Below are positions 28,842 to 51,402 of a DNA stretch of 64,000 bases, in pieces. A program made the translations under genes and the position numbers. A model generated the notes under the pieces. The model was not told where the DNA came from. It saw only the letters and a program-made list of their open reading frames with translations, and did no database searches. Source of the DNA: Candidatus Saccharimonadia bacterium (lineage in GTDB: Bacteria; Patescibacteriota; Saccharimonadia; UBA4664; SCTI01); the NCBI GenBank assembly GCA_046597065.1, contig JBKJLI010000003.1, positions 148,436 through 212,435 on the forward strand, read 5' to 3'. Position 1 is the first letter of the stretch, and each line of letters begins with the position of its first letter.

Positions 28842-29381
28842 CTACTGGCAGTGGCCCGTGAGGTGATGGCTGAGACACTCCGTTTCGTACATTCTTGGCC
28901 AATTGTTGCGATCGACTTCCCACCATTCGTTGGGCCAAGTGTCGTAGTAGTGCAGGTGAATGTCGCTCCTAGAGCGATAACGACCGCACTTGGAGCATAC
29001 GTAGCGTGGGGTGTGCTCTAGAACTTCGAGTTCGGCCACTGAACACAACCCCATGTGGCGACCATTCTGCGGTCTGTCCGGGTCGCACAACCTGAGTTCG
29101 TAGCCCATCCAAAATGGACCCAGACCCATGCTGTCCCATCCGTCACCCGGCAGGGTGAGGTCTCGTACCACATAGGTCTGCGGGGTGCCATTTGAAGGGA
29201 AGATACCCGTTCCGGCAACTCGGACCAAGTAACCTCTCATAGTTACTCTAAACAGCATGGCCTTTTCGTGGGTGATGCCAGCAAAAGGGCCGACATCGAT
29301 TCCGGCGATCGGTGCAAACGGATCTTCAACTGCCGCAAGTGCTCGATCCCACTGCGACGTAACTGCGGCTGCTGCCGACAT
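28842..29381 (-). CDS. hypothetical protein, GC-rich, Cys/His-rich C-terminus (possible HNH-like zinc-binding module)
   Basis: 179 aa, much more GC-rich than the flanks. C-terminus CSKCGRY...HLHYYD...NNW...CLSHHLTGHC. Ends 78 nt from tRNA-Arg. Confidence 0.4.
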   Translation of the reverse strand: MSAAAAVTSQWDRALAAVEDPFAPIAGIDVGPFAGITHEKAMLFRVTMRGYLVRVAGTGIFPSNGTPQTYVVRDLTLPGDGWDSMGLGPFWMGYELRLCDPDRPQNGRHMGLCSVAELEVLEHTPRYVCSKCGRYRSRSDIHLHYYDTWPNEWWEVDRNNWPRMYETECLSHHLTGHCQ

Positions 29382-29458
29382 GATTTACCATCCTTATTGA
29401 AAGATCGGGATGGTGTAGTTGTAATTCAGATTATGTCTCGATGTAAGCATAAGTCCAT

Positions 29459-29534
29459 TGGCGCCCCGGGAGAGATTCGAACTCCCGACGCCCTCCTTAG
29501 GACGGAGGCGCTCTATCCACTGAGCTACCGGGGC
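29459..29534 (-). tRNA. tRNA-Arg (anticodon CCT)
   Basis: Manual fold: acceptor GCCCCGG/CCGGGGC, D-arm GCTC-AGTGGATA-GAGC, anticodon stem CCTCC/GGAGG with loop GTCCTAA, T-arm GGGAG-TTCGAAT-CTCTC, discriminator G, CCA encoded. Confidence 0.8.
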
Positions 29535-29612
29535 ACGCTAGCCGAAATTATACCAGATGGTGTATTAAGAGCGCTTATGGTCAAAGCCTCGGCGCACAAG
29601 TAAAATACTTGC

Positions 29613-30131
29613 ATGGCCAAAAAATCCAATCAAACCGCCAAGGAGTTTCCGGGGCAACACGACGACGAAACCGTGGTACTAGTATTTCGCCAGCATCCAG
29701 TGGTGATGCGGATGGAGCTAATTTTTGGCATGCTAGCTATTTTGGCAGGAACGGGGCCTCTTCTGTTATGGCCGTTATCCGATCTCGCACTTAAGATATT
29801 TTTAATCATCCCTTTGCTAGTATTGGTGTACTGGTTTTACCACTGGGTGGGTTGGTATTACAGCGTATATATTATTACCGACCTGCGCCTTATTGATATT
29901 CGCCAACACGGCTTTTTTAACCGCAAGGTTAGCGAGGTCGGGTTTGATAAGGTGCAGTCGGTTAACTACCACATTAAAGGGCTGCAGGCGGCATTACTTA
30001 AGTTTGGTGATATTACAGTACAAACCTACACCGGTGATTGGGTGTTAAAATCGATATATCACCCCGAAGAGGTTCATACCCAGATGATGAAGGTGGCTCA
30101 CTCGGTTACCTCGACACCGCCAATCAACTAA
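29613..30131 (+). CDS. membrane protein with bacterial PH (YdbT/DUF304-like) domain
   Basis: Two TM helices followed by a YdbT-like PH fold. 172 aa. Confidence 0.55.
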   Translation: MAKKSNQTAKEFPGQHDDETVVLVFRQHPVVMRMELIFGMLAILAGTGPLLLWPLSDLALKIFLIIPLLVLVYWFYHWVGWYYSVYIITDLRLIDIRQHGFFNRKVSEVGFDKVQSVNYHIKGLQAALLKFGDITVQTYTGDWVLKSIYHPEEVHTQMMKVAHSVTSTPPIN

Positions 30132-30164
30132 GGTAAGCTATTTACAGCATAAGGAGTATTCCCG

Positions 30165-31223: not shown

Positions 31224-31244
31224 GGCGCTAAATAAGTCCGTTGG

Positions 31245-31276
31245 GCGGCGCCAGGAGATTTAACTCCTCGCGCCGC
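31245..31276. terminator. 13-bp GC-rich hairpin at convergent gene ends (overlaps RT stop codon)
   Basis: gcggcgccaggag-atttaa-ctcctcgcgccgc with one mismatch. A T-rich run lies on the minus-strand side. Confidence 0.45.
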
Positions 31277-32234
31277 AATTGTATCGACCCCCCATTTGCA
31301 AGTGGGCGTAGTAGATCCGTAAATCACGCTCAGACAGACGATGAGATGGATCGCCAAATGGACCGCTGTTTGCCATTATAGACATGAAATGCGCAATATG
31401 GCCCTCCAGGAGAGCTTGATCAACATTGCTACCACGGCTACGTGCCCTGAGCAGTTTTTCGATCTCTCTCCGCTGTTTGCCGGGAACGAACAAACGTCCA
31501 CCGTACTCCAGCCCAACTCCAGCGATCACGATCCGCTGATGCTTCTCCAGATCAATTACTTGGGCCTTCGATCGTGAGATTGAAAAGCCGGCTGCTCGAA
31601 TGGCTCCGCGTAGTGCCCGGCGCTTGTGCTTACCAATCGGCTGTTGACTGCTAAAAGTCAGGTCATCGACATAACGGGTGTAGGTAACGCCCCATCGCCG
31701 ACACAGAACGCCTATGTCAAAGTCGAGATACTGCCGGCAGTACAGGTTGAACAGGTCTTGCGATGCCGGCCCGCCGAAGCGTAGCCCTTTGCCACTGCCC
31801 AGCAGGCAGTAGTCTTGCAAAAACCTCATCACTGCCTCATCACCAAGCAGTGAGAGCTGGTCTGCTCCGTTACCGAAACAGGCCGCCAACCTTAGCCCGT
31901 CAACGTTTTCGTAGGCCCGGTATAGATCGTAGCCAACCACGTACCGATTCTCACGATGGGGAAGAATGTTGTCGACTATTGAACTACCAGGCTTTGCCGT
32001 GGCATAGAGGTTAGGGAGCCCCTGGCGCCGCAGTACGACCAGTAGTCGGCTCTGGACAACTCGGGTATGATCGTTGGGGTCATGGATCAACCGTCGCTTG
32101 CCCTTAACCTCTTTCCAGTAGGAGTTAAAGCCGGGCTGCCCCGGCGTATTTGCCGTAAGCTGCTCGATTTCAAGGAACATATTGCCTTTCAGTTGGTTGC
32201 CCAGCAAGGGTGGTCTGGAAGGATCCACCGGCAC
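31260..32234 (-). CDS. compact reverse transcriptase, DGR-like by motif (YVDD; motif-4 GxxxSQ); retron/defence-RT not excluded
   Basis: 324 aa, RT domain only. Motif 4 GLRFGGPASQDLFNLY: Ser-Gln where group II and retron RTs carry Ser-Pro. Motif 5 YTRYVDDLTF. No maturase or endonuclease domain. GTG start with the SD aaggtgag upstream. GC-rich. Confidence 0.8.
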   Translation of the reverse strand: MPVDPSRPPLLGNQLKGNMFLEIEQLTANTPGQPGFNSYWKEVKGKRRLIHDPNDHTRVVQSRLLVVLRRQGLPNLYATAKPGSSIVDNILPHRENRYVVGYDLYRAYENVDGLRLAACFGNGADQLSLLGDEAVMRFLQDYCLLGSGKGLRFGGPASQDLFNLYCRQYLDFDIGVLCRRWGVTYTRYVDDLTFSSQQPIGKHKRRALRGAIRAAGFSISRSKAQVIDLEKHQRIVIAGVGLEYGGRLFVPGKQRREIEKLLRARSRGSNVDQALLEGHIAHFMSIMANSGPFGDPSHRLSERDLRIYYAHLQMGGRYNCGARS

Positions 32235-32244
32235 ATATTTACTT

Positions 32245-32600
32245 TTTACTCACCTTAACTAAATGCCTGGCCATGCTTGCAGGTCAAATTCGACCCATAG
32301 CTGGCGCGGCCTCGGCCTTGGTGCCCGTCCGTACCGCGAGGCACGGGGGCGATAGGGCGCTGGCGCTGTAGCGGACCTGCTCCCCGCGCCCCGACCACAG
32401 CTTGGTCGGAGAACGCAGCGGTGGCAGTCACGCCATTAGACCCCCGACATTACGAGAGCCGATTCCTACCGTTGGAACAGTAGGACTGCAACTCGCCGCG
32501 TGCTTTATAGGCAACTGGCGATGCGGGCATCCGACGAATCTTTAAATCCAGACCACCCAACACAGCTAGGCAAGCGCATTCTAGCCGTTTTCAGATAAGA
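32245..32600 (-). ncRNA. GC-rich hairpin-dense noncoding region upstream of the RT (candidate RT template RNA: DGR TR+spacer, or retron msr/msd-like)
   Basis: ~360 bp with no credible ORF on either strand. Multiple perfect hairpins, e.g. ccgaccacagcttggtcgg (7 bp) and gtgcc..ggcac. Same orientation as the RT and immediately 5' of it. Composition matches the RT, not the host backbone. Confidence 0.35.
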
Positions 32601-32622
32601 ACTCAATATTTGGGCTGATGTT

Positions 32623-32967
32623 TTAACAGCCGCCGTTTTGGTACTTGTCGCCCCACTTGGCCATGGCTCGAAGAATTGGCACTAAATCCCTACCCTTATC
32701 GGTAAGGGTGTACTCGATGCGCGGTGGCACCTCATGGAATGATTCCTTGGTAATAATCTCGCCGGCCTCCATATCATCCAGTCGTTGTGATAGTGTGCGC
32801 GGGCTAATTCCAACCAGCGAGTTTTGCAGCTGGCTAAACCTCCGCGGGCCATCAACCATATCGCGCAAAATCAGCCCCGACCAGCGATCGCCAACTACTT
32901 TTAAACTGGTGGCAATGCAGCCGCTCTTGGGCTCGATGGGGGACAGAATTTTATGGGTAGTTTTCAT
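32623..32967 (-). CDS. HxlR-family winged-helix transcriptional regulator
   Basis: ...VGDRWSGLILRDMVDGPRRFSQLQNSLVGISPRTLSQRLDDMEAGEIITKESFHEVPPRIEYTLTDKGRDLVPIL, the canonical HxlR/MarR-like wHTH. Start chosen at MKTTHKIL; an upstream Met is possible. Confidence 0.75.
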   Translation of the reverse strand: MKTTHKILSPIEPKSGCIATSLKVVGDRWSGLILRDMVDGPRRFSQLQNSLVGISPRTLSQRLDDMEAGEIITKESFHEVPPRIEYTLTDKGRDLVPILRAMAKWGDKYQNGGC

Positions 32968-33077
32968 AACGATTCTATTATGCACCATAATTCTATACTT
33001 TAAAATGTATAGTAATAGATCCCAAGGAGTATATATGAAAAACATCGCTGATATTAGATGAGCCGAATCATCCCGCA

Positions 33078-33449
33078 ATGCGTCATTACCAGCACGATCA
33101 CACTAAAAAGTGGTCTAAAATCGTGGATGAAGCCGATGGTTTTATTATAGTTACGCCAGAATATAATCATGGCTACTCGGCAGGACTAAACAACGCCATC
33201 GATTATTTATACAAAGAGTGGACCGGCAAACCCGTTAGCTTTGTAAGCTATGGAGGGGTATCGGGGGGTCTACGTGCGGTAGAGCAGTTACGCCAGGTTG
33301 TGATTGAGTTGCGTATGCAGCCACTGCGCGAACAAGTATCAATACCGTTTGTGAGAGGTGCAGTTAGGGAAGGCAAGCTGCCACACGATGATGCTAGACA
33401 TAAGCAACTACAAACACACTTAGCTGATTTAGCAAGCAGCCTAAGCTAG
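33078..33449 (+). pseudogene. NADPH-dependent FMN reductase family, 5'-truncated remnant
   Basis: The ORF begins inside the conserved core (ADGFIIVTPEYNHGYSAGLNNAIDYL aligns to ~residue 70 of SsuE-type enzymes). The N-terminal GSxRxxSxN FMN-phosphate loop is missing. A strong SD plus ATG upstream opens only an 8-codon out-of-frame stub (MKNIADIR*). Confidence 0.55.
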
Positions 33450-33469
33450 AATCATAGAATCAAACGAAG

Positions 33470-33515
33470 AAGAGCCCGAAGGCAAAGACATTTAAGTCAT
33501 CTCCTTCGGGCTCTT
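33470..33515. terminator. 13-bp hairpin between convergent genes
   Basis: aagagcccgaagg ... ccttcgggctctt with a ~20-nt loop. Lies between the FMN reductase remnant stop and the small peptide stop. Confidence 0.4.
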
Positions 33516-33525
33516 TAGGCCTGTT

Positions 33526-33645
33526 TCAGCTGAGGATCATCAGTACCAGAGTTGCACCAACGGCAACCCCTGGGCCGATAAATCCGGTGATCAACGCAAC
33601 GAAGATCACACAGGCAAAGACCTGAACAGTCTCATGATCGCGCAT
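33526..33645 (-). CDS. small hydrophobic membrane peptide (39 aa)
   Basis: MRDHETVQVFACVIFVALITGFIGPGVAVGATLVLMILS. GGAGG SD ~11 nt upstream of the ATG. Not in the ORF track because it is <60 aa. Confidence 0.4.
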   Translation of the reverse strand: MRDHETVQVFACVIFVALITGFIGPGVAVGATLVLMILS

Positions 33646-33673
33646 TTAAACTATTGCCTCCAGGGCGTAAGAA

Positions 33674-33994
33674 CTACTTGCAGTTGGTGGTGATCGTCGG
33701 CGCAGAAGTACCGTAGACTACATTGTGCTGGCCTTCGGGCTGCTGGGTTAGCGAGAGAATCGTCAGACATCGCCTGAGTTCTCCGTTCTGAGGATCCTTC
33801 CAGGTGTTCCAGAGCGACATCTGGGTTAGCTTGACCTTGCCAAAGTCACGCTTTTTAACAGCCGCCGCACGAGCCGTCTCGGATTTGTGCTTTTCGTTCG
33901 AGAACGTTGGATAGGCGATGGCGCCCAAGATCAAGATGATCAACATGATCACAGCGAGCTCAGTAAATGTAAGGCCGTACTTAAATTTCTTCAT
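33674..33994 (-). CDS. orphan type IV pilin-like protein
   Basis: Start at MKKFKYG|LTFTELAVIMLIILILGAIAYP (Gly-1, Glu+5). C-terminal Cys pair. ggagg SD 9 nt upstream. Confidence 0.65.
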   Translation of the reverse strand: MKKFKYGLTFTELAVIMLIILILGAIAYPTFSNEKHKSETARAAAVKKRDFGKVKLTQMSLWNTWKDPQNGELRRCLTILSLTQQPEGQHNVVYGTSAPTITTNCK

Positions 33995-34220
33995 TCGGCT
34001 TAAGCCTCCAGGTTTCGGGGTGCGTCGCACATCGAGGACGTGAGAACGACTTATTGTACGATATATCTGGGCAATAGTCTAGCGGTAAATATTTATATGC
34101 TTGTAGCCAACTTAATCAAAAAGCCCCTCATGGCATAAGCCTTAAGGGGCGGCGGCAGACTCTCCGGTTATTTGAGAGTCTGCCCGGGGTTTGCACAGAT
34201 CTAGCCCCAGCTGAGGTGGG

Positions 34221-34685
34221 TTAGGTGGGTAGTGCCTTAGACTTAGCCGATTCGCTGATCTTGAGATCTAGCTCATCAAGCTGGTCGCGATCAAAACCGG
34301 CTGCAAGAGCCAGCTCGCGCATCGCTTTGTATCGCGCTCGGCTCCCATTCGGACTCTGTGAGTCGAAGGCGCTTGCCAAGATTGCTACCACTCCACCGGC
34401 AGGGTCTCCGTGAACCATATGGCTGTTGGCTACTTCGATGAGGTAGGGCTGAGTAGAACCAAGTTCGATGAGCGTCTCGATGACTCTGGGCTGAAGTTCA
34501 GCCAGTTGGGCATCGTTACGTGGGGCATTGAACTTGAAGGCCTGCAAGAACTTGGCGCGGAATTCCAAATCTTGGAGCTCCAGTTCCTCGGTATTGCGGG
34601 CCTTGTTCTTGGCCCGCAACTGAAGCGTGATTGCCATCAACACAATGATGACGATGATCAGAGCTGCATCGATGAACCAAATCAT
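34221..34685 (-). CDS. hypothetical N-terminally membrane-anchored protein
   Basis: Start placed at MIWFIDAALIIVIIVLMAITLQL, with AGGAGG SD 10 nt upstream. The longer ORF-track version would run into tRNA-Asp. Confidence 0.5.
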   Translation of the reverse strand: MIWFIDAALIIVIIVLMAITLQLRAKNKARNTEELELQDLEFRAKFLQAFKFNAPRNDAQLAELQPRVIETLIELGSTQPYLIEVANSHMVHGDPAGGVVAILASAFDSQSPNGSRARYKAMRELALAAGFDRDQLDELDLKISESAKSKALPT

Positions 34686-34776
34686 TTTACCGTATCCTCC
34701 TGGTTGGTGGTGTACGCTCACGGCAAAAAACCTTGAGATGCTGAATATCATACAATAAATAGCTGAATAAGTCCAA

Positions 34777-34853
34777 TGGCGGGCCCGACCGGATTCGAAC
34801 CGGCGATCTCCTCCGTGACAGGGAGGCATGTTAGGCCTCTACACCACGAGCCC
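34777..34853 (-). tRNA. tRNA-Asp (anticodon GTC)
   Basis: Manual fold: acceptor GGGCTCG/CGGGCCC, anticodon stem CCTCC/GGAGG with loop CTGTCAC, T-arm GCCGG-TTCGAAT-CCGGT, CCA encoded. Confidence 0.8.
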
Positions 34854-34953
34854 ACACCTTGAATAACTGATTTATACTAGCACCAAATACCGTCGGTTGC
34901 AATCTGTTAAATCGGCATAAAAAGTTAAGCATAAGTTGAATCGTTAGCCATCG

Positions 34954-35370: not shown

Positions 35371-35374
35371 AGCA

Positions 35375-35827: not shown

Positions 35828-35956
35828 TTCTGGCTGATCGGTTCTTCCAAAACTAACATTTATAACAGTCACAGCTTTGGAACTCGCACCAATGTTACCA
35901 AGTAAGGACTCAGCGATACTAACTCATGTAACTTAACGAATTGGGGAGGGTAAAAC

Positions 35957-36133: not shown

Positions 36134-36170
36134 ATAAGCTCCCACCTGGGAGCTTTGTTGTTATAAGTCC

Positions 36171-36244
36171 TGGAGCGGGTAAGGGGAATCGAACCCCTCT
36201 CTCAACCTTGGGAAGGTCGCGTTCTACCGATGAACTATACCCGC
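36171..36244 (-). tRNA. tRNA-Gly (anticodon CCC)
   Basis: Manual fold: acceptor GCGGGTA/TACCCGC, anticodon loop TTCCCAA, T-arm AGGGG-TTCGATT-CCCCT, CCA encoded. 74 nt. Confidence 0.75.
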
Positions 36245-36247
36245 CAA

Positions 36248-36323
36248 TGGAGCCGATGGGCGGATTTGAACCGCCGACCTTTGCTTTACGAAAGCACTGC
36301 TCTTCCAGCTGAGCTACATCGGC
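36248..36323 (-). tRNA. tRNA-Thr (anticodon CGT)
   Basis: Manual fold: acceptor GCCGATG/CATCGGC, D-arm GCTC-AGCTGGAA-GAGC, anticodon loop TTCGTAA, T-arm GGCGG-TTCAAAT-CCGCC, CCA encoded. 3 nt from tRNA-Gly. Confidence 0.75.
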
Positions 36324-36406
36324 GTAAGACCTATTAATTGAACCAAATAATTGCGAGTAATACTAGAAGGAGTGGATCCCAAGCCCATGGCTCAAGATCC
36401 ACCCCT

Positions 36407-37126
36407 TTATGGTTTCAGCTCCCTTAGAGCAATATCAGCCCTAAGGGCCATACGTTCTACAAGTAGCTCGGAAAGCTGCCGCTCCTGGCCTGGCGTTAGG
36501 TCTGAGACTCGGTGCTGGGCATAAAAGTCGGCTAGCGAAACACCAACTTCTGCCAGCCATCTTTTGGTGTCGGTCATAGTGGGGCGGCCGGTTCTGTTAC
36601 GACCGGACACTTTAACCGGATGAACAAGCGGGTTGCCAGTTACCCGCACGCCGAGCATTGTTGACGCGTCTAGGTGCAGAGCTGGCACCCATTGGTGTAG
36701 CTGCGTTGACAGTTGCAGCCGCTTCATCGCCGCAAAGCGATCATGCGCAACTTGTGAGGAAGACTTTAGCCCAAACATTTTTACCAAGTCGCTGTCGAAG
36801 TAGCCAAGAGGCTTCAGCCGGCAAAGTAGCAAGATGCACCATTGGCGAGCAGCGGTAGCTTCGGGTTGTCTGTTTCCGCCCTGCATTTGCTCCAACGGCA
36901 TCCTGGTGTTTTGGGCGACAGTGCAAAGCACAAACCAGGTAACCCGGCACTTTTTGGCGAAAGCACTATTGCCGTATTCCAGCTCAGCTTTAATTAGGCG
37001 GATTTCCAGCTTACGAATGTGGCGCGCTTCGGTTTCACGAGCTTTTTGGGCCACCGCGTTGTCGATTGCTCGACGCAGACTGGCGCGGTCCTGTGGGGCC
37101 AGCGTATCCATCGAGTATCCTTTCAA
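36407..37126 (-). CDS. hypothetical protein, GC-rich, next to tRNA pair
   Basis: Longest ORF in a GC-rich patch (239 aa; probable start at MDTLAPQDR). No recognisable motif. The + strand ORFs in this patch look like antisense noise. Confidence 0.4.
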   Translation of the reverse strand: MKGYSMDTLAPQDRASLRRAIDNAVAQKARETEARHIRKLEIRLIKAELEYGNSAFAKKCRVTWFVLCTVAQNTRMPLEQMQGGNRQPEATAARQWCILLLCRLKPLGYFDSDLVKMFGLKSSSQVAHDRFAAMKRLQLSTQLHQWVPALHLDASTMLGVRVTGNPLVHPVKVSGRNRTGRPTMTDTKRWLAEVGVSLADFYAQHRVSDLTPGQERQLSELLVERMALRADIALRELKP

Positions 37127-37615: not shown

Positions 37616-37616
37616 C

Positions 37617-42158: not shown

Positions 42159-42421
42159 TGCTTATTAGCCTCCCGTAAACCTGGTATTAGTGCAAAAAAA
42201 GGCCCCCGGCATGTGGCGATTACGTCGTAACCGCGACCGAGAGCTTCCTTACCACAAGAGGTATTGTAGGGAACCGTCATGGCGCTGTAAAGACTTTTAT
42301 GATAAATATGACAATATGTAGTCATGTAACTGGTAATTAGCCAGGTGGAAAAGTTAGTCCAAAAGGGGATAAGCCATTTCGGTTTGCTCGATTTTAGGGG
42401 CATATCGGTATAATTACTTAC

Positions 42422-43081
42422 ATGTGTGGACGTTTTACCCTCATATCTGAGGTCAATCAGCTTAAAAAGCGTTACAACGCGACCGATCCTGGTGGTTATC
42501 GAGCGCCAAACTACAATGTCGCCCCAACCCAGTTTGCGCCGATTGTTACAGCTGATGGCTTGGTTCAGGCCAGGTGGGGACTTATACCAGGCTGGGCTAA
42601 AAGCCTTAATGCCGGCTATTCAATGATTAACGCCAGGGCCGAAACAATTTTAGAAAAGCCAACCTATAAACCCTTAATGAAAACCGGCCGCTGCTTGGTT
42701 CCTGCCAGTGGATTTTACGAATGGGAGAGCACAGAGGCCAACCGCAAACAGCCGGTTTATTTTACGGTTAAGGGGGCCGAGATCTTTTCGCTGGCCGGCC
42801 TTTTTGCCAAACGCCAAGACGATGATGGCCATGTTTCTTACAGCTTTACGATCATTACAACCACTCCTAATAATCTGGTAGCAGCGGTGCATGATCGCAT
42901 GCCGGTAATCCTAGAGGAGAGCGAGGAACAGCATTGGCTCAATTCTTTAATTGCACCGGAGCAGGCTGCGCTAATGCTAGACTCTTATCCGGCCGGTGAT
43001 ATGATCAAGACTTTGGTTTCAACTGCGGTTAATAGCACCGCTAACAATAGCGCCAACCTGTTAGAACCAATCCAGCGATAG
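42422..43081 (+). CDS. SOS-response-associated peptidase (SRAP/YedK, abasic-site processing)
   Basis: N-terminal MCGRF with catalytic Cys2. 219 aa. Characteristic ...GLIPGWAK... and ...PASGFYEW... blocks. Confidence 0.85.
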   Translation: MCGRFTLISEVNQLKKRYNATDPGGYRAPNYNVAPTQFAPIVTADGLVQARWGLIPGWAKSLNAGYSMINARAETILEKPTYKPLMKTGRCLVPASGFYEWESTEANRKQPVYFTVKGAEIFSLAGLFAKRQDDDGHVSYSFTIITTTPNNLVAAVHDRMPVILEESEEQHWLNSLIAPEQAALMLDSYPAGDMIKTLVSTAVNSTANNSANLLEPIQR

Positions 43082-43149
43082 AGCATGGCTTAACGCTAAT
43101 GCTTGATGTTCGCCTTATGTTCGGCTAGTATTTAGTCGATCGGGGGAGT

Positions 43150-43419
43150 ATGTCGAGGTTTGAAAAGGTTAACAGCAGAGTCGCGGTTTTGGCTGGCTTT
43201 GGGCATACACCCGAGGGCTCGGTTCGAATTACGCCTTTTATTTTAAGGTGGGGCCGAAAGCGTTTTAGGGTTCAGATGGAGGGTCTTTATCATGTTGAGC
43301 GCAGGGGATCTAGGCGCATCCATATACTGGGTTTTTCATCTGGGGGTACGGCTTTTAGGGTAGAGTTCGACGCCGAGACTGCGGAATGGACCCTGGTAGA
43401 GGTTTATTATGGCGATTAG
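43150..43419 (+). CDS. hypothetical small protein upstream of Y-family polymerase (possible YolD-like accessory)
   Basis: 89 aa, overlaps the polymerase ORF. The YolD-like assignment is by position only; no motif support. Confidence 0.35.
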   Translation: MSRFEKVNSRVAVLAGFGHTPEGSVRITPFILRWGRKRFRVQMEGLYHVERRGSRRIHILGFSSGGTAFRVEFDAETAEWTLVEVYYGD

Positions 43420-43465
43420 ATCGGGCATTTTTGCAGCCCACATTAACCCTGAACCACCAGAGATC

Positions 43466-44692
43466 ATGCACATTGATCTTAATAGTGCTTTCGCCATGAC
43501 CGAGCAGCAGGCCAACCCTCTACTGCGAGGCAAGCCGGTTGGTATCACCAATCGCATTAATGACTACTCAATTTGTATTACTGCTTCATACGAAGCCAAG
43601 CGCCTTGGTATTTCAATTGGTACTCGGCAAAAGGACGCTCGATTACGAGCCCCGGGATTTATCATGCTAGAGAGTGATGCCCCCAAGTATCAGTTCGTAC
43701 ATAGAAAGCTTCGGGCCATATTTGAGAGTTACTCGCCAGTAGCTTATATGAAATCGATTGATGAGGGGGTGATCGACTTTAGGGGTATGAAAGCGGTGCT
43801 TAAAGGTCGCCCCCTAGAAGATGTAGCGGCCGAGATTAAACATCGGGTTAAAGATGAGATAGGCAATTACATGACCGTAAATATTGGTATCGGCCAGAAC
43901 CGGTGGCTAGCCAAGGTGGCGGCTTCTTTCATGAAGCCGGACGGTTTATTAACGATTGATCGTGATAGTTTAGAGTCAATTTATGCCGTGATGGACTTGG
44001 TTGATCTGCCATATATTAAAAAACGTAATCAACTAAGACTAAATGAGGCTGGCATCTACACGCCACTGGAGTTTTTTAGGGCGCCATACTGGCTGCTGTT
44101 CAGGAGGGTTTTTAAGAGCGTTAATGGTCATCACTGGTATTTTAAACTAAGGGGCTATGAAACAGAGGTGCAGTATGGGATCAGGTCGGTCGGCAGGAGC
44201 TACGTTTTAGAACATAGGACTTCTGACCCAGAGGAGCTGGCGACACTGCTGCACAAGGCTTGCCATAAGATTGCTCGTCGTCTTAAGAAAAACGATTTAG
44301 CAGCTCGTGGCCTGGCATTGGGCTTGGGTTATTCGGAGGTGGGCTGGGACGGCCGTTACCGGCGTTCTGGCTGGTATGAGCGTAAGATGTGGCCCACTAG
44401 CGCCTATCGTACCGACCAGCTGTACCAGAGGGCGTTAGCGCTGTTTGCTACTAGCCGGCTAGGCTATACCGTTACGTCGTTAGTCATGACCAGCTACGGC
44501 CTAGAGCCAGTCAAGCTGGACCAGCCCAGCCTATTTAGAGACACCGAGTTCAGAAGAAACCAACTCGAGGGAGCTATAAATAAAGTTAACGATCGGTATG
44601 GTGAACTATCCCTAGTGCCAGCGGCAGTAGTTAAATCTAAGAACCCGATGAAGGATAAGATTCCTTTTGGAACCGTCCGCTACTTTGATTAG
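43466..44692 (+). CDS. Y-family DNA polymerase (DinB/UmuC-like translesion polymerase)
   Basis: MHIDLNSAFAMTEQQANPLLRGKPVGIT... matches the Y-family N-terminus. Includes the palm motif region and little-finger domain. Start chosen at MHIDL; the ORF could begin at 43409. Confidence 0.8.
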   Translation: MHIDLNSAFAMTEQQANPLLRGKPVGITNRINDYSICITASYEAKRLGISIGTRQKDARLRAPGFIMLESDAPKYQFVHRKLRAIFESYSPVAYMKSIDEGVIDFRGMKAVLKGRPLEDVAAEIKHRVKDEIGNYMTVNIGIGQNRWLAKVAASFMKPDGLLTIDRDSLESIYAVMDLVDLPYIKKRNQLRLNEAGIYTPLEFFRAPYWLLFRRVFKSVNGHHWYFKLRGYETEVQYGIRSVGRSYVLEHRTSDPEELATLLHKACHKIARRLKKNDLAARGLALGLGYSEVGWDGRYRRSGWYERKMWPTSAYRTDQLYQRALALFATSRLGYTVTSLVMTSYGLEPVKLDQPSLFRDTEFRRNQLEGAINKVNDRYGELSLVPAAVVKSKNPMKDKIPFGTVRYFD

Positions 44693-45111
44693 CCGCGGGC
44701 GGCCATAAGCTCATCAACGGCTTGCCCTCGATGGGTAGTCGTATGACTGGCCTGGCGGCCGCGAAAATAGTGAATCAACCCCCACAGCTGTTTGGTGACG
44801 CCGACGGCTTCGGCTTTGAGCTCGCTAGCATTAGCGTAGCCGCGCTGTGAGCTCTCATCAAGATGCTGGTTAAGTTGTTCAACTTCAACCCGTGCCAGGT
44901 GTAAAGCCTCTATCTTAAGCCCTATGCTATGACGGCGAAAGGCCTCACTAATATAATGCGATATCGCGGCACTGCTGCGCCTCAAATCATTTCCTAACCG
45001 ATAAAACTCGGTTTGCGGCAACGAGCGGACCAGCTCGTAAACCTTATCTTCTAGTTTTCTGCTGGCTGTATACACCCGCAGATCCTCAATGGAAGTTTGG
45101 CGTGTGGCCAT
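44689..45111 (-). CDS. four-helix-bundle protein (PF05635 / 23S rRNA-intervening-sequence protein family; Avd-like fold)
   Basis: 140 aa. ...DLRVYTASRKLEDKVYELVRSLPQTEFYRLGNDLRRSSAAISHYISEAF... matches the family pattern. Confidence 0.7.
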   Translation of the reverse strand: MATRQTSIEDLRVYTASRKLEDKVYELVRSLPQTEFYRLGNDLRRSSAAISHYISEAFRRHSIGLKIEALHLARVEVEQLNQHLDESSQRGYANASELKAEAVGVTKQLWGLIHYFRGRQASHTTTHRGQAVDELMAARG

Positions 45112-45205
45112 AATCTACCCCCTCACAACTTAAAGGCATCCCCTGCGATCAAATATACCGAACAAAAACCGAACTGTCAAGACACTAAAAAAGCCAAGCC
45201 ATAGC

Positions 45206-45406
45206 CTAGGGAAGAATTGGATTGCTGTTTTCGGGAGATTGCTCGAACGGCACCTCAATATCTTGAGATAACAATTCAAGCTGGGATTCGTTAAGCCCCT
45301 TGGGTGCAGATGAAATTTCCGGTAATGGTTCATCAGATGAGGCAGAAGCTAGAGTCTCCAAATTTTCATAAAATACGGCAGTAATTTGGCGCAGGTGGCG
45401 GCTCAT
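45206..45406 (-). CDS. hypothetical small acidic protein
   Basis: 66-aa ORF only; no SD checked. Confidence 0.2.
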   Translation of the reverse strand: MSRHLRQITAVFYENLETLASASSDEPLPEISSAPKGLNESQLELLSQDIEVPFEQSPENSNPILP

Positions 45407-45616
45407 AGATCCCCAGTAATATTAGGTATTTATTTGCTTATACAGCGATTGCTGGCACCTATCAAATTTAGTCTTTTCTTTAGATTCAGTCAAACCCCAA
45501 CCTTACAAAAATACCGATATAATTAACGGCTATTTTGGAACAAAGTTGAACTTTATAAGAATTTGTTAATCTCGATCATGTATAACGGAGTTTAGGCAGT
45601 AACAGAGGAGTAAATT

Positions 45617-48178
45617 GTGATCAAAAAACTAGTGCTAGGAGTGGTTATAGGAGCATTGATTTACCCATTATTTATAAGACCAATAGCGGCAGTTAACGCT
45701 GTGGGATGGAGTAATATAGCTTTTCAAAACAGCACTATCAGCCTTGTAAAGGTGAATCGCTGGCGGCCTAATGAGGTTGCGGCGGTCGCAAACGGTAGTT
45801 TGCAACTGACGCGAGATGGCGGTATAACTTGGCGAAGTTCTGCCGTACCTAGCCTGACTCGCCAAATAGAATACGACCCAGTTGTCAGCGACCGGCTTTA
45901 TCCCGGTACCGACGCAGGGGTTTATATCAGTGATAATGCCGGAGTCAGCTGGCGCTTATTTGATTCCGGCCTATCGGCTCGCAAAATAACCCAGGCTTTA
46001 GTTGCCACCAGTCAGTATTTGTTTGCAGCGATGTATGATGGCGCCGGAACGCCCCAGCAGCTATTTAGGTTTGGACTTGACGGTAGCGTCGCGATTTTGA
46101 CACCACCGGATGGCGGTAGCGCTTGGCTTGAATACGACTTTGAGCGCCACCGTCTTTATGATGCCGCTGCTAATGGGGTTTATTCGAGTGAAGACTATGG
46201 CGTTTCCTGGCGCTTTTTGGGAGGTGGTCGTAGCGCTGAATCGATTGTTGCCAAGGGCAAAACGCTATGGGAGGGTTCGGCCGATGGTTTGTTCCGATCG
46301 CAGGACGACGGTGCCAATTGGGTTAGGCTAGCTAGAGCAGGAGAACTTAATGGGACCTATTATGGTAGTGATCTGCGAATAAGTGGTTTGGCCGTAAACA
46401 ATAATCGAGCCTTTTATGGCACTTGGAGCATTGGTTTTCCTTACCGTTTCTTAGGCGAGTACAGCGGCACTTTGGCCCATAGCGAGCTCGATGCTCGCGT
46501 TTATAGCGTGGCTTCCGGAGGCAACCGGGTCTGGGCTGCGACTGGGGCCGGTTTGTGGGTGAATGACCAGGTTGCTACTAGTGAGGTGCACATACAACGA
46601 CCAGTCATCGTGGTGCCCGGTGTACTTGGCTCAATGCCGGTGCCAAACGCCTTATTGAGGCAGTTTGTTGGCTATCTGCCTGAACCCACCGGTGCCAGTT
46701 ATCATACTAGTTTGGTGCTGGACCCAATCCAGCATACCTACGATGGCTTAATTTCAGGATTACGGGCAGCTGGTTACCAAACAGGTACTACTTTGTTTAG
46801 CTTTCCCTATGAATGGCGGCATGATAACCAGCAGAGCGGTCGCGAGCTAGCCGTAAGAATTGCCGACGTACTGCGAGTTTGTAGTTGTGCTCAAGTTGAT
46901 ATTATTGCGCATTCTATGGGTGGTCTGGTGGCCCGTTCATATATTGAAAGTGCAGCATATGCCGGTGATGTTCATGCTTTAGTACAGATCGCTACACCTA
47001 ATGCTGGCTCACCCTCGGCCTACGCTGCCTGGGAGGCAGGAAGTATTAATGACAATCATTCGCTTCAAGATCATTTAGCAAATCTAGTTTTTAAGATCGA
47101 GGCTGCTCACGCTGGTAGCGGCTCTTTGGCGCAGTACATCCGCCAGTCGGTGCCATCTGCCGGGCAGTTATTGCCCATTTCTAGTTATCTATCTGGGCGG
47201 ACCTACCCGAGCGGCTATCCTCGTAATTCATTCTTAGAACAGCTTAATGCAACTGCAGGAGTTCAGCAGCTTAAGCAGAGAGTGGCGTACTTTCTAGTGG
47301 GATCAACCTCTCAATCTACCCTCGCAAATCTAAGTGTTACTGCTTCAAGGCCTTTAGCTACAGAATGGCCAGACGGCGAGATAATTGGAAAAACAAACGG
47401 GAGTGGCGATGGAACTGTACCTATTGATAGCACTCAAGCAATCACGCCCGTTTCAAGAATGGTGGCCGGTAATCATGGTGACATTGTGGGTGCAGCGGAC
47501 ACGCTCAGCTATATTAAAAACACGCTTTTAGGCGACTATCTCGGAAGCAATGTCGCCAATGTGCCAACCTTCACCAAATACCTGGCAATTTACGTACATT
47601 CACCAGTTAAGCTACAAATTACCAATGCCATCGGGTTGCGGCTTAATGACCAAGTTAGTGAAATACTGGGCGCATACTATACAGGCTCTGAAGCAGCAAC
47701 TCAGTTTGCTTTGATACCAAACCCTAGCGGAGATTACACAGTTATTTTGAGTGGATTGGGGTTTGGTAATTTTGGAGTCGGCGCGCAGATAATTAATCTA
47801 GAAACCGGCGGTTCTCGGACTAGTTTTATCAGTTCGACGATTAGCATCGACCAGCAGAAACACTTCCTTTATGAAACAACCAAAGCAGCACTAGTTGGTA
47901 CCGACCCGCCCCAGCCAAGTGGGCCAGTATTGGCTACTAATATTGTTCAAAACCCAGGCCTGGTTAAGCCAGCGCCCGACCTGGCTCGTTATGCGTATAG
48001 AGGGGAACTGCTAAATCGCATAAAACGCACTACCTCAGGTCGCCTTAAAGCCGAGTCTAAGAGCGCGAGACGCAAGCAAACCAGCAGGCTAGCTCTGTTG
48101 ATTGTAGTAATTTCCGCAACAAGCCTGGTCGCGATCGTTGGAATTTTTAGGTTGCTGAGGCGTCGCAAAGTCGACTAA
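45617..48178 (+). CDS. secreted/membrane-anchored protein: BNR/Asp-box beta-propeller region + alpha/beta-hydrolase (lipase/LCAT/PGAP1-like GxSxG) + C-terminal TM anchor
   Basis: N-terminal hydrophobic segment. Four Asp-box-like repeats (TRDGGITWRS, SDNAGVSWRL, SEDYGVSWRF, SQDDGANWVR). Nucleophile elbow IIAHSMGGLVA. C-terminus LALLIVVISATSLVAIVGIFRLLRRRKVD. Confidence 0.7.
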   Translation: MIKKLVLGVVIGALIYPLFIRPIAAVNAVGWSNIAFQNSTISLVKVNRWRPNEVAAVANGSLQLTRDGGITWRSSAVPSLTRQIEYDPVVSDRLYPGTDAGVYISDNAGVSWRLFDSGLSARKITQALVATSQYLFAAMYDGAGTPQQLFRFGLDGSVAILTPPDGGSAWLEYDFERHRLYDAAANGVYSSEDYGVSWRFLGGGRSAESIVAKGKTLWEGSADGLFRSQDDGANWVRLARAGELNGTYYGSDLRISGLAVNNNRAFYGTWSIGFPYRFLGEYSGTLAHSELDARVYSVASGGNRVWAATGAGLWVNDQVATSEVHIQRPVIVVPGVLGSMPVPNALLRQFVGYLPEPTGASYHTSLVLDPIQHTYDGLISGLRAAGYQTGTTLFSFPYEWRHDNQQSGRELAVRIADVLRVCSCAQVDIIAHSMGGLVARSYIESAAYAGDVHALVQIATPNAGSPSAYAAWEAGSINDNHSLQDHLANLVFKIEAAHAGSGSLAQYIRQSVPSAGQLLPISSYLSGRTYPSGYPRNSFLEQLNATAGVQQLKQRVAYFLVGSTSQSTLANLSVTASRPLATEWPDGEIIGKTNGSGDGTVPIDSTQAITPVSRMVAGNHGDIVGAADTLSYIKNTLLGDYLGSNVANVPTFTKYLAIYVHSPVKLQITNAIGLRLNDQVSEILGAYYTGSEAATQFALIPNPSGDYTVILSGLGFGNFGVGAQIINLETGGSRTSFISSTISIDQQKHFLYETTKAALVGTDPPQPSGPVLATNIVQNPGLVKPAPDLARYAYRGELLNRIKRTTSGRLKAESKSARRKQTSRLALLIVVISATSLVAIVGIFRLLRRRKVD

Positions 48179-48180
48179 AT

Positions 48181-49341
48181 TTAATGTGGCTGATAAAACA
48201 TTAAGCCCAGCTTAATCTGCAATGCATCATCAAATATTCGCGGATCCAGACCAATCAACTTTTTGGTTTTCTCGAGGCGATAAATCAGCGTATTGCGGTG
48301 AATATGTAGCTTGGCCGCGGCATCGGTAAGGTTTAAGCCAGCCTGCAAAAAGTATTGCACCGTTTTATATAGTGCTTCGTCATGTAATAGTGGGTAAAGA
48401 ATTTGGTGAGCCAGTTCGGCCTTGTGTTCTTGAGCCACATTAGCCAGCGTTACAAACATTCCGACTTTTTTAATGTGATAGATTTGGCCGGGCCCCCACA
48501 CTTTAGTACCAACCGAGAGTGCCAACTTTGCCTCTTGAAAGCTTTTGCGCAGGCCTCCTAAATCGGGGTAGTACTGACCAACTCCGATGGTCGTGGTTAA
48601 GCCATCTAGCTCCTCAATCAAACCAAGTACCTCACTGATATAGGTGGCTTTTTCGTGCAAAAAACGGGCAGTATTACGGGTTGTAAGACCTTCGCCCCCA
48701 ATGCCCTTAAGAACCAAAAAGCGGCCATGGCCAAGATAGCTAAACAAATTATCTGAGTTATCGCGAAAAGCGGCTTTTAATCTATTGATAATCTTGATGG
48801 CTTGAATCAGTGCAGTCTCGGTTGGATGTCCAAATGCAGAGTCGCTGATACGCTCAAAACCATGAACGTCTATTAACATTACCGATTGGGGCTGGCGCAA
48901 ATTTAGCTGTAATATATCGGCTTGGCGGTAAACTTCGGCTGGCTCCTGACGGGGGGACATCAGTACCTGGCGCAAAAAATCAGCCTGCATCTTTTCGGAA
49001 GGTTGGGCGTGTTCAAGCAAAAAGTGCTGATGCACAATCACTTCGGCTAATCCCTGTAGCAGATTCAAGGCTTCGGGTGTAGTTTGAACCTCACTTTCAA
49101 TAACACCAAAGCAGCCGATGGTTTGCTGCTCGTATACAAAGGGACACCAAGCGATTGGCAGCCCACCTAGTTCACTGCGAATTACGCGACCCTCTTGGCA
49201 CGAACGCAAGGCATCCACAATCACGGCCGGAAGGGGTTCACCCAGCAGTCCGCCGTGTAAGTTACAGATGTAGATTTCACGGTTCAAGACTAATCTAGCT
49301 CGTCGGGTAATCTCAGCTGCAATCTCGGGACTCAGGTTCAT
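48181..49341 (-). CDS. PucR/CdaR-family transcriptional regulator
   Basis: 386 aa. C-terminal PucR-type HTH ...AAAKLHIHRNTLIYRLEKTKKLIGLDPRIFDDALQIKLGLMF. Confidence 0.75.
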   Translation of the reverse strand: MNLSPEIAAEITRRARLVLNREIYICNLHGGLLGEPLPAVIVDALRSCQEGRVIRSELGGLPIAWCPFVYEQQTIGCFGVIESEVQTTPEALNLLQGLAEVIVHQHFLLEHAQPSEKMQADFLRQVLMSPRQEPAEVYRQADILQLNLRQPQSVMLIDVHGFERISDSAFGHPTETALIQAIKIINRLKAAFRDNSDNLFSYLGHGRFLVLKGIGGEGLTTRNTARFLHEKATYISEVLGLIEELDGLTTTIGVGQYYPDLGGLRKSFQEAKLALSVGTKVWGPGQIYHIKKVGMFVTLANVAQEHKAELAHQILYPLLHDEALYKTVQYFLQAGLNLTDAAAKLHIHRNTLIYRLEKTKKLIGLDPRIFDDALQIKLGLMFYQPH

Positions 49342-50456
49342 AGTTCTGGCTCCACAAAGCGGGTGAACAGTATGGCCAGCTTTATTTGTACGGCGTCATC
49401 GAACTTGCGGGGGTCCAAACCTAACGCCTCAGTTATTCGATCAAGACGGTACACCAAGGTATTTCGGTGTATCCCCAACTCATCTGCAGTTTGTGTTAAA
49501 GCCATATTATTGCGAAAGAAGCTATCTAGAGTTTCGGTAACGCCCTGCTGTTGCTCAAGCTTTTCAACCAGTTCGCGGCTAAAGTAGATGTTACTTTCAT
49601 CTACACCGGCAAGTAGGGGAGCAACCACTCCAAAGTCATCAATATGGTAAACCCGACCGCTGTCCCAGTTTTGAGAACCCAGCTCAACCGCCGACACAGC
49701 TTCTTTATAACTACGCCGCAGTCCGTCGATGCCGGCGTGGTGGTTGCCGACCCCCATAGTAATCGACAGCTTTAGTTCGCCGGCTAGAATAGTGTGGATG
49801 GTTGGTAGCGAGCGCTTGAACTTTTCTAAAGCCAGATCCAGCGGAGTCTCATTGCCGTTTAAATCCTTTAAGATACAAAATGCATTGTGGCCCAGGTAGG
49901 CCACGATGTTGTTGCGGCTAGAGGTGTAGTACGAACTCAATCCTCGATTAATCCCAAACTTGTAACGGGCAATCAGCCCATCTCGGCCCTCGCGTCGGCT
50001 TTCACCCCTTAACACTGGGTCATCAACATAAATCATAATGGCCACTCGTGGCTTAGATAGATCGATTTCGAACAACCGGGCCTCGGCTGCGGGGGCGGCA
50101 AGATCTTCATATCGGCCGTTTAACAGATCATAAATGAACTTATCCAGCCGTTCCTCGCTGTGGGGCAAACGCTCGATCAACAGCGACTGGTGCATAATCA
50201 GCTCAGCCAGCGAACGAATTAAGGGTGCGATCTCGACGTGATTTTCCATTTGCTGTGCTAGCACCACATAACCAACCTTGGTGTTATCGTGGTGCAAAGG
50301 GATGGCCCAGCCGGTGCTATCGAGCTCAACCCGATTAATAATTGCAGAATCGTTCCCGGCAAGCACCAATCCCTCCCGATCGGTGATTGAGAGCGGTTGG
50401 TTAACCAGGCCACCTACCTTGGCGTGGATTTTTTCAGCGATTTCCGGAGTCAACAT
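49338..50456 (-). CDS. PucR/CdaR-family transcriptional regulator (tandem paralogue)
   Basis: 372 aa. ...TADELGIHRNTLVYRLDRITEALGLDPRKFDDAVQIKLAILF. Internal similarity to the neighbouring regulator. 4-nt overlap. Confidence 0.75.
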   Translation of the reverse strand: MLTPEIAEKIHAKVGGLVNQPLSITDREGLVLAGNDSAIINRVELDSTGWAIPLHHDNTKVGYVVLAQQMENHVEIAPLIRSLAELIMHQSLLIERLPHSEERLDKFIYDLLNGRYEDLAAPAAEARLFEIDLSKPRVAIMIYVDDPVLRGESRREGRDGLIARYKFGINRGLSSYYTSSRNNIVAYLGHNAFCILKDLNGNETPLDLALEKFKRSLPTIHTILAGELKLSITMGVGNHHAGIDGLRRSYKEAVSAVELGSQNWDSGRVYHIDDFGVVAPLLAGVDESNIYFSRELVEKLEQQQGVTETLDSFFRNNMALTQTADELGIHRNTLVYRLDRITEALGLDPRKFDDAVQIKLAILFTRFVEPEL

Positions 50457-50569
50457 AAGGCCTCACTTGGAATCTTGCCTAACAAGCTTATCCTGATGCA
50501 GCCTTTAGCAGCAAGCTTAAGCGAAATCATATTTGTAGGGTTGCATAACATAAGCAGTATAATGAGGAC

Positions 50570-50734
50570 ATGACAAAAAGCGTGGTCTGGTTGGGTGCAG
50601 GAATAGGGGGCTTTATCGGAGGCTGGGTTCCTAGTATTTGGGGCGACAGCTTGTTATCCCCCTGGTCGCTACTATTAAGTGGTGCCGGCAGCCTAGCAGG
50701 CATCTGGGTGATCTACAAACTCTACAACTCTTAA
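50570..50734 (+). CDS. small Gly-rich membrane peptide (54 aa)
   Basis: TATAAT immediately upstream. MTKSVVWLGAGIGGFIGGWVPSIWGDSLLSPWSLLLSGAGSLAGIWVIYKLYNS. Confidence 0.35.
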   Translation: MTKSVVWLGAGIGGFIGGWVPSIWGDSLLSPWSLLLSGAGSLAGIWVIYKLYNS

Positions 50735-50793
50735 TAATTACTTTGTGACCGAGCACAGCCCGCAATGGGCCGCACTCGGTCAAGAACCGGGAC

Positions 50794-51402
50794 TTACTGC
50801 GAGATGTCGTCGGCCGGCGGGTCGGCCAGGATCTTGATGTCCAGCCGCCTTCCAGTCACCTGTCGTGTGAATAGTCCCTTCGGCGGATCTCCAAGAATTC
50901 TGTGTTCCCGCAGTTCATCCAGCCTACCGTTGTTGACTTCGGGCTTAATGATGACATTATCACCATCGCCAAACGCTCTCTTTAAAACCGAGCACACAAG
51001 CTTGGGGTCTCGACCCATGATTGTGACTTTGACGCCCGTGATCACATCGCCTCGGTATGCGCCTGCGTATTCGATCAGAGCCTCAATCGGTCCGCTGTCT
51101 GTCGTGTGCGTAGTAACAAACTTTGCCTCCAAGGAACCAGGAATCAGTAGACCGCTCAGTTGCTGAACCCAGGCTCCGTCGATCAGCTCGCGGTCTCGCT
51201 TATTGACATGCCCAAGCCTAGCGATTTCAGCCCGTCTTAAAGCCGTATTGATTAGCAATGGTTCTGCTCCACGAAGCTGCATCTGACGAGCAACGCTCAG
51301 TGAAGGAGCGCGCCTTCTTCCGATGCCCTGCAGCTGCATGCCACAACCGTATACGTCACTTGGTACATATCCATCTTCTACGCTTGCCACCTCGTACTCC
51401 AA
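50794..51402 (-). CDS. hypothetical protein, GC-rich, adjacent to tRNA-Val pair
   Basis: 202-aa ORF in a GC-rich patch. No recognisable motif. Its start lies 126 nt from tRNA-Val. Confidence 0.4.
   Translation of the reverse strand: MEYEVASVEDGYVPSDVYGCGMQLQGIGRRRAPSLSVARQMQLRGAEPLLINTALRRAEIARLGHVNKRDRELIDGAWVQQLSGLLIPGSLEAKFVTTHTTDSGPIEALIEYAGAYRGDVITGVKVTIMGRDPKLVCSVLKRAFGDGDNVIIKPEVNNGRLDELREHRILGDPPKGLFTRQVTGRRLDIKILADPPADDISQ

Follow-up and report, generated by a model that had tools for sequence, protein, structure and literature searches.

Genomic islands and integrative elements associated with tRNA genes are the work of tyrosine or large serine recombinases acting at tRNA 3' ends. 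Site-specific integration of this kind puts the cargo on the 3' side of the tRNA. A different precedent for small genes of narrow distribution is provided by the ORFans within the candidate phyla radiation (CPR), which are taxonomically restricted, fast-evolving genes. Here both precedents are compared with three small genes in a 64-kb stretch of chromosome (49.7% GC), referred to throughout as the window, from a member of Candidatus Saccharibacteria (Saccharimonadia, TM7; assembly GCA_046597065.1, contig JBKJLI010000003.1, positions 148,436 to 212,435). An earlier note, made from the sequence of the window without database searches, had drawn attention to three GC-rich, minus-strand orphan open reading frames (ORFs), each beside tRNA genes, and had suggested that they might be the debris of several tRNA-targeted integrative elements or members of one family of small mobile cargo genes. 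The three are designated ORF1, ORF2, and ORF3.

The best explanation, which we hold with moderate confidence, is that these are three unrelated, lineage-restricted small genes, with ORF1 horizontally acquired, ORF3 inherited, and ORF2 an ORFan, and that what they share is a type of neighborhood and not an origin. The pattern is mostly a coincidence of neighborhood: ORF1 is a credible piece of acquired cargo, ORF3 is native, and ORF2 could be read either way. The locus resembles tRNA-associated integrative elements in that ORF1 lies directly 3' of a tRNA gene, is absent in relatives, and has atypical codons, and in that genuine elements with large serine recombinases and repeats of the tRNA-Asp 3' end occur in relatives. 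It differs from them in that the window has neither a recombinase nor an att duplication, each tRNA locus has just one such gene, ORF2 and ORF3 lie on the 5' side, and ORF3 is inherited. The likeness to CPR ORFans is that none of the three proteins has a family assignment and that ORF3 is much more diverged than its neighbors; the difference is that remote homologues of ORF1 occur beyond the phylum, on high-GC contigs of which one is an actinophage.

Gene status, composition, and relatedness of the three ORFs

The observation that three minus-strand ORFs stand beside tRNA genes was borne out, and gene calls exist for all three in public assemblies of this organism. ORF1 (positions 28842 to 29381, minus strand; 179 aa) lies directly 3' of tRNA-Arg(CCT), in the same direction, begins 77 nt downstream of this minus-strand tRNA gene, and has an AAGGA ribosome-binding site. 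ORF2 (36407 to 37111, minus strand; 234 aa, predicted to be helical) lies upstream, on the 5' side, of the tRNA-Thr/tRNA-Gly pair, again in the same direction, and has an AAAGGA ribosome-binding site and a hairpin downstream. ORF3 (50794 to 51390, minus strand; 198 aa, called as P0006 at the same length) has a GTG start preceded by a GGAG ribosome-binding site and is divergent from tRNA-Val on its 5' side. The coordinates first given for ORF1 were correct; those for ORF2 and ORF3 were slightly too long at the start, with ORF2 beginning at the ATG at 37111 and not at the TTG at 37126, and ORF3 at the GTG at 51390 instead of at 51402. In each of the three genes the annotated frame is the best of the six by codon usage. 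All seven tRNA genes that ARAGORN found in the window were confirmed by Rfam, which detected nothing but tRNAs, and thus no T-box or other RNA, in the window or in the related metagenome contig L082.

The notion of GC-rich ORFs on a lower-GC backbone was right about adjacency to tRNA genes but stronger than the composition warrants. The GC contents of ORF1, ORF2, and ORF3 are 0.563, 0.549, and 0.541, compared with a gene mean of 0.500 (standard deviation, 0.033), which places them 3rd, 4th, and 8th among 67 window genes; conserved backbone genes in the window reach 0.53 to 0.54. Third-position GC (GC3) is unusual in ORF1 alone (0.617). The excess in ORF2 and ORF3 is mostly at codon position 1, which suggests that it reflects amino acid composition. 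The ten tRNA-flanking genes average 0.506 GC, and finding three of the top eight GC genes among them has a hypergeometric P of 0.09, with the selection made post hoc. Nor did a general rule that accessory genes are GC rich survive: genes that have homologues in five or more related loci did not differ in GC from those that have none (P = 0.44).

Codon usage separates ORF1 from the other two. Leave-one-out codon scores for the 67 window genes average 0.232 (standard deviation, 0.104), and ORF1, at -0.009, has the second lowest (z = -2.3). ORF3 is 8th lowest and ORF2 11th, both mild deviations (z of about -1.3 and -1.1, respectively), and ORF2 is within the normal range. The retron-type reverse transcriptase (RT) gene, the 4176 lipoprotein gene, and the 6728 gene also score low. 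The last two are the most GC-rich genes of the window (4176 to 4577, 0.597; 6728 to 7270, 0.580; both minus strand); neither adjoins a tRNA gene, neither has family matches, and the 4176 product has a lipoprotein-type signal (…LVATGC).

The proposal of a single family was refuted. In an all-against-all BLASTP comparison no pair of the three proteins was better than E = 2.7, a single family for ORF1 to ORF3 was rejected on this ground, and tblastn found no paralogues of the three in the window. Searches further afield returned little. No Pfam, PHROG, NCBIfam, or PADLOC scan of the three proteins gave a result above threshold, and in a word-indexed homology search against 5.8 billion clusters each of the three matched only itself and is thus a singleton there. 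The comparison with phage databases that the earlier note had proposed was likewise negative: IMG/VR scans for all three (for ORF1, by way of profile A1) gave no match, nor did tblastn against GenBank phages with ORF1, ORF2, ORF3, and P0007. A scan of a collection of metagenome contigs gave no match for ORF3.

The designation "orphan" is strictly true of ORF2 only, because three remote homologues were found for ORF1 and a single positional orthologue for ORF3, as described below. Even the nucleoside diphosphate kinase gene (NDK) of the window is a singleton at 90% identity; the lineage is therefore sparsely sampled, and orphan status has to be read with that in mind. The best matches of NDK among GTDB contigs (one genome per species) are 67 to 68% identical and come from metagenome-assembled genomes (MAGs) of Candidatus Saccharibacteria/Saccharimonadia, and the nearest comparators are distant throughout, with NDK at most 68% and ThrRS at most 70% identical. 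Many genes neighboring the three ORFs are likewise without Pfam domains. The other housekeeping genes of the window include those for EF-P, YchF, PilMNO, M16 peptidases, NrdR, L25, and ThrRS. Logan assembly SRR31159421 and a 414,741-bp NCBI contig also contain these sequences. The Logan contigs of this organism stop inside tRNA-Arg (29506) and tRNA-Asp (34798); assemblies evidently break at these conserved tRNA genes, which makes the content of tRNA flanks hard to study in short-read MAGs.

tRNA genes as synteny anchors and their variable 3' flanks

The tRNA genes next to the three ORFs have kept their places across the class. In about 48 Saccharimonadia loci the order 13181 ... 22452 - NDK - tRNA-Arg(CCT) - bPH(29613) - 30165 - tRNA-Asp - tRNA-Thr(CGT) - tRNA-Gly(CCC) - 37220/37617 - NrdR - tRNA-Val(GAC) - ThrRS is retained, in keeping with the high synteny already reported for Saccharibacteria (McLean et al. 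2020, PMC7427843). The anchors in the window, all identified with ARAGORN and Rfam, are tRNA-Arg(CCT) (29459 to 29534, minus strand), which stands between NDK and the bPH gene class-wide; tRNA-Asp(GTC) (34777 to 34853, minus strand); the pair tRNA-Gly(CCC) and tRNA-Thr(CGT) (36171 to 36323, minus strand), which precedes the 37220/37617 genes; and tRNA-Val(GAC), followed by tRNA-Val(CAC) (51528 to 51690, plus strand), the former of which stands between NrdR and ThrRS in relatives. These tRNA genes are ancient synteny anchors, and ORF1 to ORF3 would be alike in neighborhood rather than in origin.

Variation in gene content is concentrated at a few of the backbone junctions. Of 19 junctions, nearly all that do not involve a tRNA gene are tight, with gaps of more than 500 bp in 0 to 6% of loci. 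Such gaps occur in 43% of loci at the 3' flank of tRNA-Arg and in 70% at the 3' flank of tRNA-Asp, and which side varies depends on how the tRNA gene is oriented. The gaps around tRNA-Arg in 42 loci are 36 to 447 bp on the 5' side and 6 to 3129 bp on the 3' side, and at tRNA-Asp the 3' gap is larger than the 5' gap in 21 of 21 loci (medians, 2491 versus 175 bp). At least 15 unrelated gene families occupy the tRNA-Arg slot in the 42 loci, among them PfkB kinase, inositol monophosphatase, GATase/PRTase, ABC-F, radical SAM, NUDIX, FMN reductase, and SnoaL proteins as well as unknowns, and none of these slots contains an integrase. Across the class, almost every genome either has its own gene in the tRNA-Arg(CCT) 3' slot or leaves the slot empty. 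The tRNA flanks, and the 3' flanks especially, are permissive or variable sites in this genome.

One variable junction does not involve a tRNA gene, that from the 22452 gene to NDK, at which 23% of loci have a gap of more than 500 bp. In the window this junction carries four genes (23562 to 28130), for a Wzy_C/TPR protein, BacA/UppP, a VTT/DedA-type protein, and an M16 peptidase. The block is confined to the closer clade of the window (L004, L006, L033, L035, and L076), and the junction measures about 70 bp in most relatives. The 3' flank of tRNA-Asp in the window is filled by a 3.5-kb block (31260 to 34736) in a slot that is variable in 21 of 21 relatives. It carries a retron-type RT gene (31260 to 32234, minus strand; Pfam RVT_1; PADLOC RT_VI and RT_II-A at E of about 1e-25) with companion genes for an HxlR-type regulator (32623 to 33078) and an N-terminally truncated FMN reductase (33078 to 33449). 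The tblastn matches labeled "34221-" proved to be an artifact, being merely translated tRNA-Asp.

Hallmarks of site-specific integration are found in relatives of the organism. In ten relatives the last 14 to 19 nt of tRNA-Asp, tRNA-Val, or tRNA-Arg are exactly repeated downstream of the gene, with the CCA included in the clearest cases. Seven repeats of at least 16 nt were observed across all loci, compared with about 0.014 expected by chance. A candidate integrated element is at positions 12749 to 17989 of a Saccharimonadales MAG contig (L072; JBOHNS010000003.1), in which the 19-nt repeat AATCCGGTCGAGCCCGCCA, identical to the 3' end of tRNA-Asp, recurs 5.16 kb downstream of the tRNA gene. 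Abutting this tRNA-Asp, and overlapping its 3' end, is a gene whose 531-aa product, a large serine recombinase, has Resolvase and Recombinase domains, and homologous recombinases abut tRNA-Asp in L011 and L031. Exact copies of tRNA 3' ends (14 to 18 nt) also occur at short range, 100 to 320 nt downstream, of tRNA-Asp in L025, L037, and L040, of tRNA-Val-GAC in L019, L024, and L025, and of tRNA-Arg in L043, where the copy is 15 nt long and lies 102 nt downstream. Integration and excision may have left these short-range copies behind, as scars or miniature remnants.

Comparable traces are missing from the window. The search for direct repeats of tRNA 3' ends that the earlier note had recommended covered 15 kb around each of the seven tRNA genes and found no tRNA segment of at least 11 nt exactly repeated, and blastn-short gave only chance-level matches; the same type of scan at a 14-nt threshold does find the repeats of 14 to 19 nt in relatives. 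There is no recombinase remnant in the window, where tblastn with the L072 large serine recombinase matches only the tRNA-Asp overlap, and a Pfam scan of roughly 47 of the window ORFs found no integrase. Of the three genes, only ORF1, downstream of the minus-strand tRNA-Arg, is on the side on which cargo is expected; ORF2 is upstream of the minus-strand tRNA-Thr, and ORF3 is 5' of the plus-strand tRNA-Val. The suggestion that the three are debris of several tRNA-targeted integrative elements is thus unsupported in the window, for want of repeats and of a recombinase remnant, because ORF2 and ORF3 are on the 5' side, and because ORF3 is inherited. The intuition of mobile elements does have a real basis in the lineage, in the variation of 3' flanks, in the recombinase elements of relatives, and in ORF1.

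Probable separate histories of ORF1, ORF3, and ORF2

A survey of presence and absence, also recommended in the earlier note, gave a mixed result among comparators that are all distant: ORF1 and ORF2 are absent from all related loci, but ORF3 is present in L082. For ORF1 the absence extends to 76 genome loci and to the metagenome loci. The slot that it occupies is empty (32 to 190 bp) in L003, L004, L033, and L035 and holds unrelated genes in L006 and L076, with the tRNA gene in the same orientation in all six.

A HMMER scan of 1.84 billion representative proteins found three homologues of ORF1, with 33% identity and E values of 1e-4 to 6e-4 (1e-9 to 3e-9 in a small-database comparison). They are encoded on contigs of 63 to 71% GC (L079 to L081). 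The first of these contigs has tightly packed, co-directional small ORFs together with a T4-type RNA ligase and PNK (phrog_562 and phrog_505), and its DNA-level matches are to actinobacteriophages only (of Streptomyces, Mycobacterium, Arthrobacter, Gordonia, and Microbacterium); the DNA of L080 had no match among GenBank phages. ORF1 is plausibly an acquired cargo gene, and it most likely entered by horizontal transfer from a high-GC, phage-type source. Saccharibacteria are epibionts of Actinobacteria, and an origin of ORF1 from a phage of the host is therefore an attractive, if unproven, inference.

ORF1 would encode a small nucleic-acid-binding protein. Its predicted layout is an N-terminal helix, a beta-barrel like those of Sm, Hfq, and WYL proteins, and a C-terminal Cys4 zinc ribbon, for which the closest comparisons are Sm/Hfq-like and WYL-type small beta-barrels (DriD, BrxR, CapW, and PafBC) combined with a zinc ribbon. 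A BFVD fold search gave no match at an E of 0.001 or better, and profile A1 retrieved nothing meaningful among PDB sequences. The C terminus, rich in cysteine and histidine, had been described as HNH-like, and in that richness it does resemble HNH endonucleases; however, the H-N-H motif is not conserved. The family alignment conserves CxxC...C plus a C-terminal cysteine and not the histidines, and there is no HNH match. The tail is therefore predicted to be a Cys4 zinc ribbon, and an HNH endonuclease was rejected. The gene might be expressed from its own ribosome-binding site, possibly also by read-through from tRNA-Arg. Beyond its stop, between the convergent ORF1 and NDK genes, a terminator-like hairpin with a 9-bp stem can be read directly from the sequence (28764 to 28796, minus strand; AGGGCCAGG-atatt-CCTGGCCCT then TTAACTATTT); a simple terminator scan left it unlisted because its T run is interrupted.

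ORF3 is vertically inherited and fast evolving and heads a conserved ORF3-PucR-PucR cluster. The inheritance follows from an orthologue that matches ORF3 in position and strand in L082, the closest relative found (ThrRS, 70%; PucR proteins, 65% and 69%; and Y-family polymerase, 69% identical). There, a 229-aa ORF (L082:4122 to 4811, minus strand) lies between the second PucR gene and tRNA-Val(GAC). It is 25% identical to ORF3 over 110 aa (BLASTP E = 4e-8) and 26% identical at full length, with a phmmer E of 3.8e-4 against 16,762 ORFs. At 25 to 26% identity, compared with 65 to 70% for the neighboring genes, ORF3 would be evolving about three times faster than they are. The orthologue has a GC content of 0.535, compared with 0.479 for its contig, which is the 97th percentile. 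The GC-richness of ORF3 is a property of the gene and not a sign of recent import, and for this gene the reading in the earlier note is refuted by the very kind of observation that the note had named.

ORF3 is the first gene of its co-directional cluster, which continues downstream on the same strand with two genes for PucR-type regulators (48181 to 50456, minus strand; Pfam HTH_30 and GGDEF_2), conserved beside the orthologue in L082. The cluster ends a 9.4-kb block between NrdR and tRNA-Val (42155 to 51450) that also encodes SRAP, a Y-family polymerase, a 23S-IVP-like protein, and an 853-aa lipase/BNR protein, with ORF3 last. Distant relatives lack the block and have NrdR, tRNA-Val, and ThrRS within about 1 kb; L082 shares part of it and is without the 853-aa lipase/BNR protein and the 23S-IVP-like gene. 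Within the block, genes for an SRAP peptidase, an 89-aa product, and the Y-family DNA polymerase (42422 to 44692) make up an SOS-type cassette; in L082 (3 to 1254) the polymerase and 89-aa genes are inverted and adjoin the PucR pair. The second tRNA-Val gene of the window (CAC; 51614 to 51690) is 63 bp before ThrRS, and its place in L082 (4939 to 5457) is taken by 520 bp that include a small ORF and palindromic, GC-rich DNA.

ORF2 had no homologue in any search (the clusters, IMG/VR, related loci, and GenBank phages), and relatives have no room for it: about 133 bp are available in L035, and in L126 there is no gap before the homologue of the 37220 gene. Its best sub-threshold Pfam match is of residues 62 to 121 to Bac_DnaA_C (PF08299; E = 0.013), the helix-turn-helix of DnaA domain IV. 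The pattern R..A.RQ...L..RL......L...FG..S.S.V.H fits the domain; in contrast, the score is 16 bits against a cutoff of 31.5, and structural support is lacking, the pLDDT of the model (41) being too low for use. Neither a BLASTP comparison with domain IV of E. coli DnaA nor searches of PDB sequences gave anything significant. ORF2 may be a helix-turn-helix DNA-binding protein, the match being no more than a lead. It would be an ORFan that arose in, or was inserted into, the interval from tRNA-Thr to the following backbone gene.

Alternative origins and implications

The principal competitor of three unrelated genes is that ORF1 alone is the relic of a tRNA-Arg-targeted integration, or of some other single-gene insertion there, and that ORF2 and ORF3 are native. 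This is possible, if less than probable. The position of ORF1 directly 3' of tRNA-Arg, in the same direction, is what such an event would leave, the slot is empty in four relatives, and codon usage, GC3, and phage-affiliated homologues all point outside the genome; in L043, moreover, the 3' end of tRNA-Arg is repeated nearby. However, the window has neither an att repeat nor an integrase, there is no integrase in any of the 42 tRNA-Arg slots, and the slot might just as well be a neutral, permissive place that recombination following DNA uptake has filled. Extending the same history to all three ORFs, as relics of separate integrative elements that targeted the adjacent tRNA genes and whose integrases and att repeats have decayed, is quite unlikely. 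The mechanism is at work in the lineage, as exemplified by the 5.2-kb element of L072 with its tRNA-Asp repeat and large serine recombinase, by the recombinases abutting tRNA-Asp in L011 and L031, and by 3'-end repeats of 14 to 18 nt of tRNA-Asp, tRNA-Val, and tRNA-Arg in seven other loci; variable DNA tracks the 3' side of tRNA genes, and ORF1 is on that side and compositionally atypical. Against this, the window yielded no tRNA-derived repeat, recombinase remnant, or integrase at the thresholds given above, ORF2 and ORF3 are on the 5' sides of their tRNA genes, ORF3 is syntenic with L082 inside a conserved regulator cluster, and the tRNA-Arg slot of relatives holds ordinary metabolic genes without integrases.

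A more skeptical view takes one or more of the ORFs, above all ORF2, for open frames that arose by chance in GC-richer intergenic DNA and are not genes; it is very improbable. ORF2 has no homologue, a poor structure model, and a codon score below the window mean, but an open frame of 234 codons at 50% GC is improbable by chance, the frame is the best of six and comes with a ribosome-binding site and a downstream hairpin, and ORF1 and ORF3 have homologues with conserved motifs. Several points do weigh against the explanation that we prefer, that of three unrelated genes with a horizontally acquired ORF1. The coding status of ORF2 is based on composition, length, and ribosome-binding site only. 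The comparators are so distant that absence in relatives cannot separate recent gain from loss elsewhere, and closer relatives might carry diverged positional orthologues of ORF1 and ORF2, just as ORF3 has one. The homologues of ORF1 are just 33% identical, at E values of about 1e-4, and L079 is the only one of their three contigs that is demonstrably phage. Native genes that are short, weakly expressed, or fast evolving typically have low codon scores as well.

The finding is mostly ordinary, with nothing categorically new, and its useful result is the context. The more interesting by-products are the class-wide hot spots at tRNA 3' flanks and the serine-recombinase elements of relatives: the 3' flanks concentrate gene-content variation, which includes those elements in relatives and the retron-type RT in the window. 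A broader possibility, which we regard as doubtful, is that, in Saccharimonadia, the 3' flanks of a handful of deeply conserved tRNA genes (Arg-CCT, Asp-GTC, and Val-GAC) are class-wide landing pads for single genes or small cassettes, supplied in part by elements with large serine recombinases. On that view ORF1 would be a record of genes entering the epibiont from the phages of its high-GC actinobacterial hosts, because its only known relatives are in three high-GC contigs, one of them an actinophage. An earlier study of TM7x reported no strong indication of horizontal gene transfer from its Actinomyces host (McLean et al. 2020, PMC7427843). Should ORF1 indeed come from actinophage-type DNA, it would be a rare record of genes moving between an episymbiont and its host's virome.

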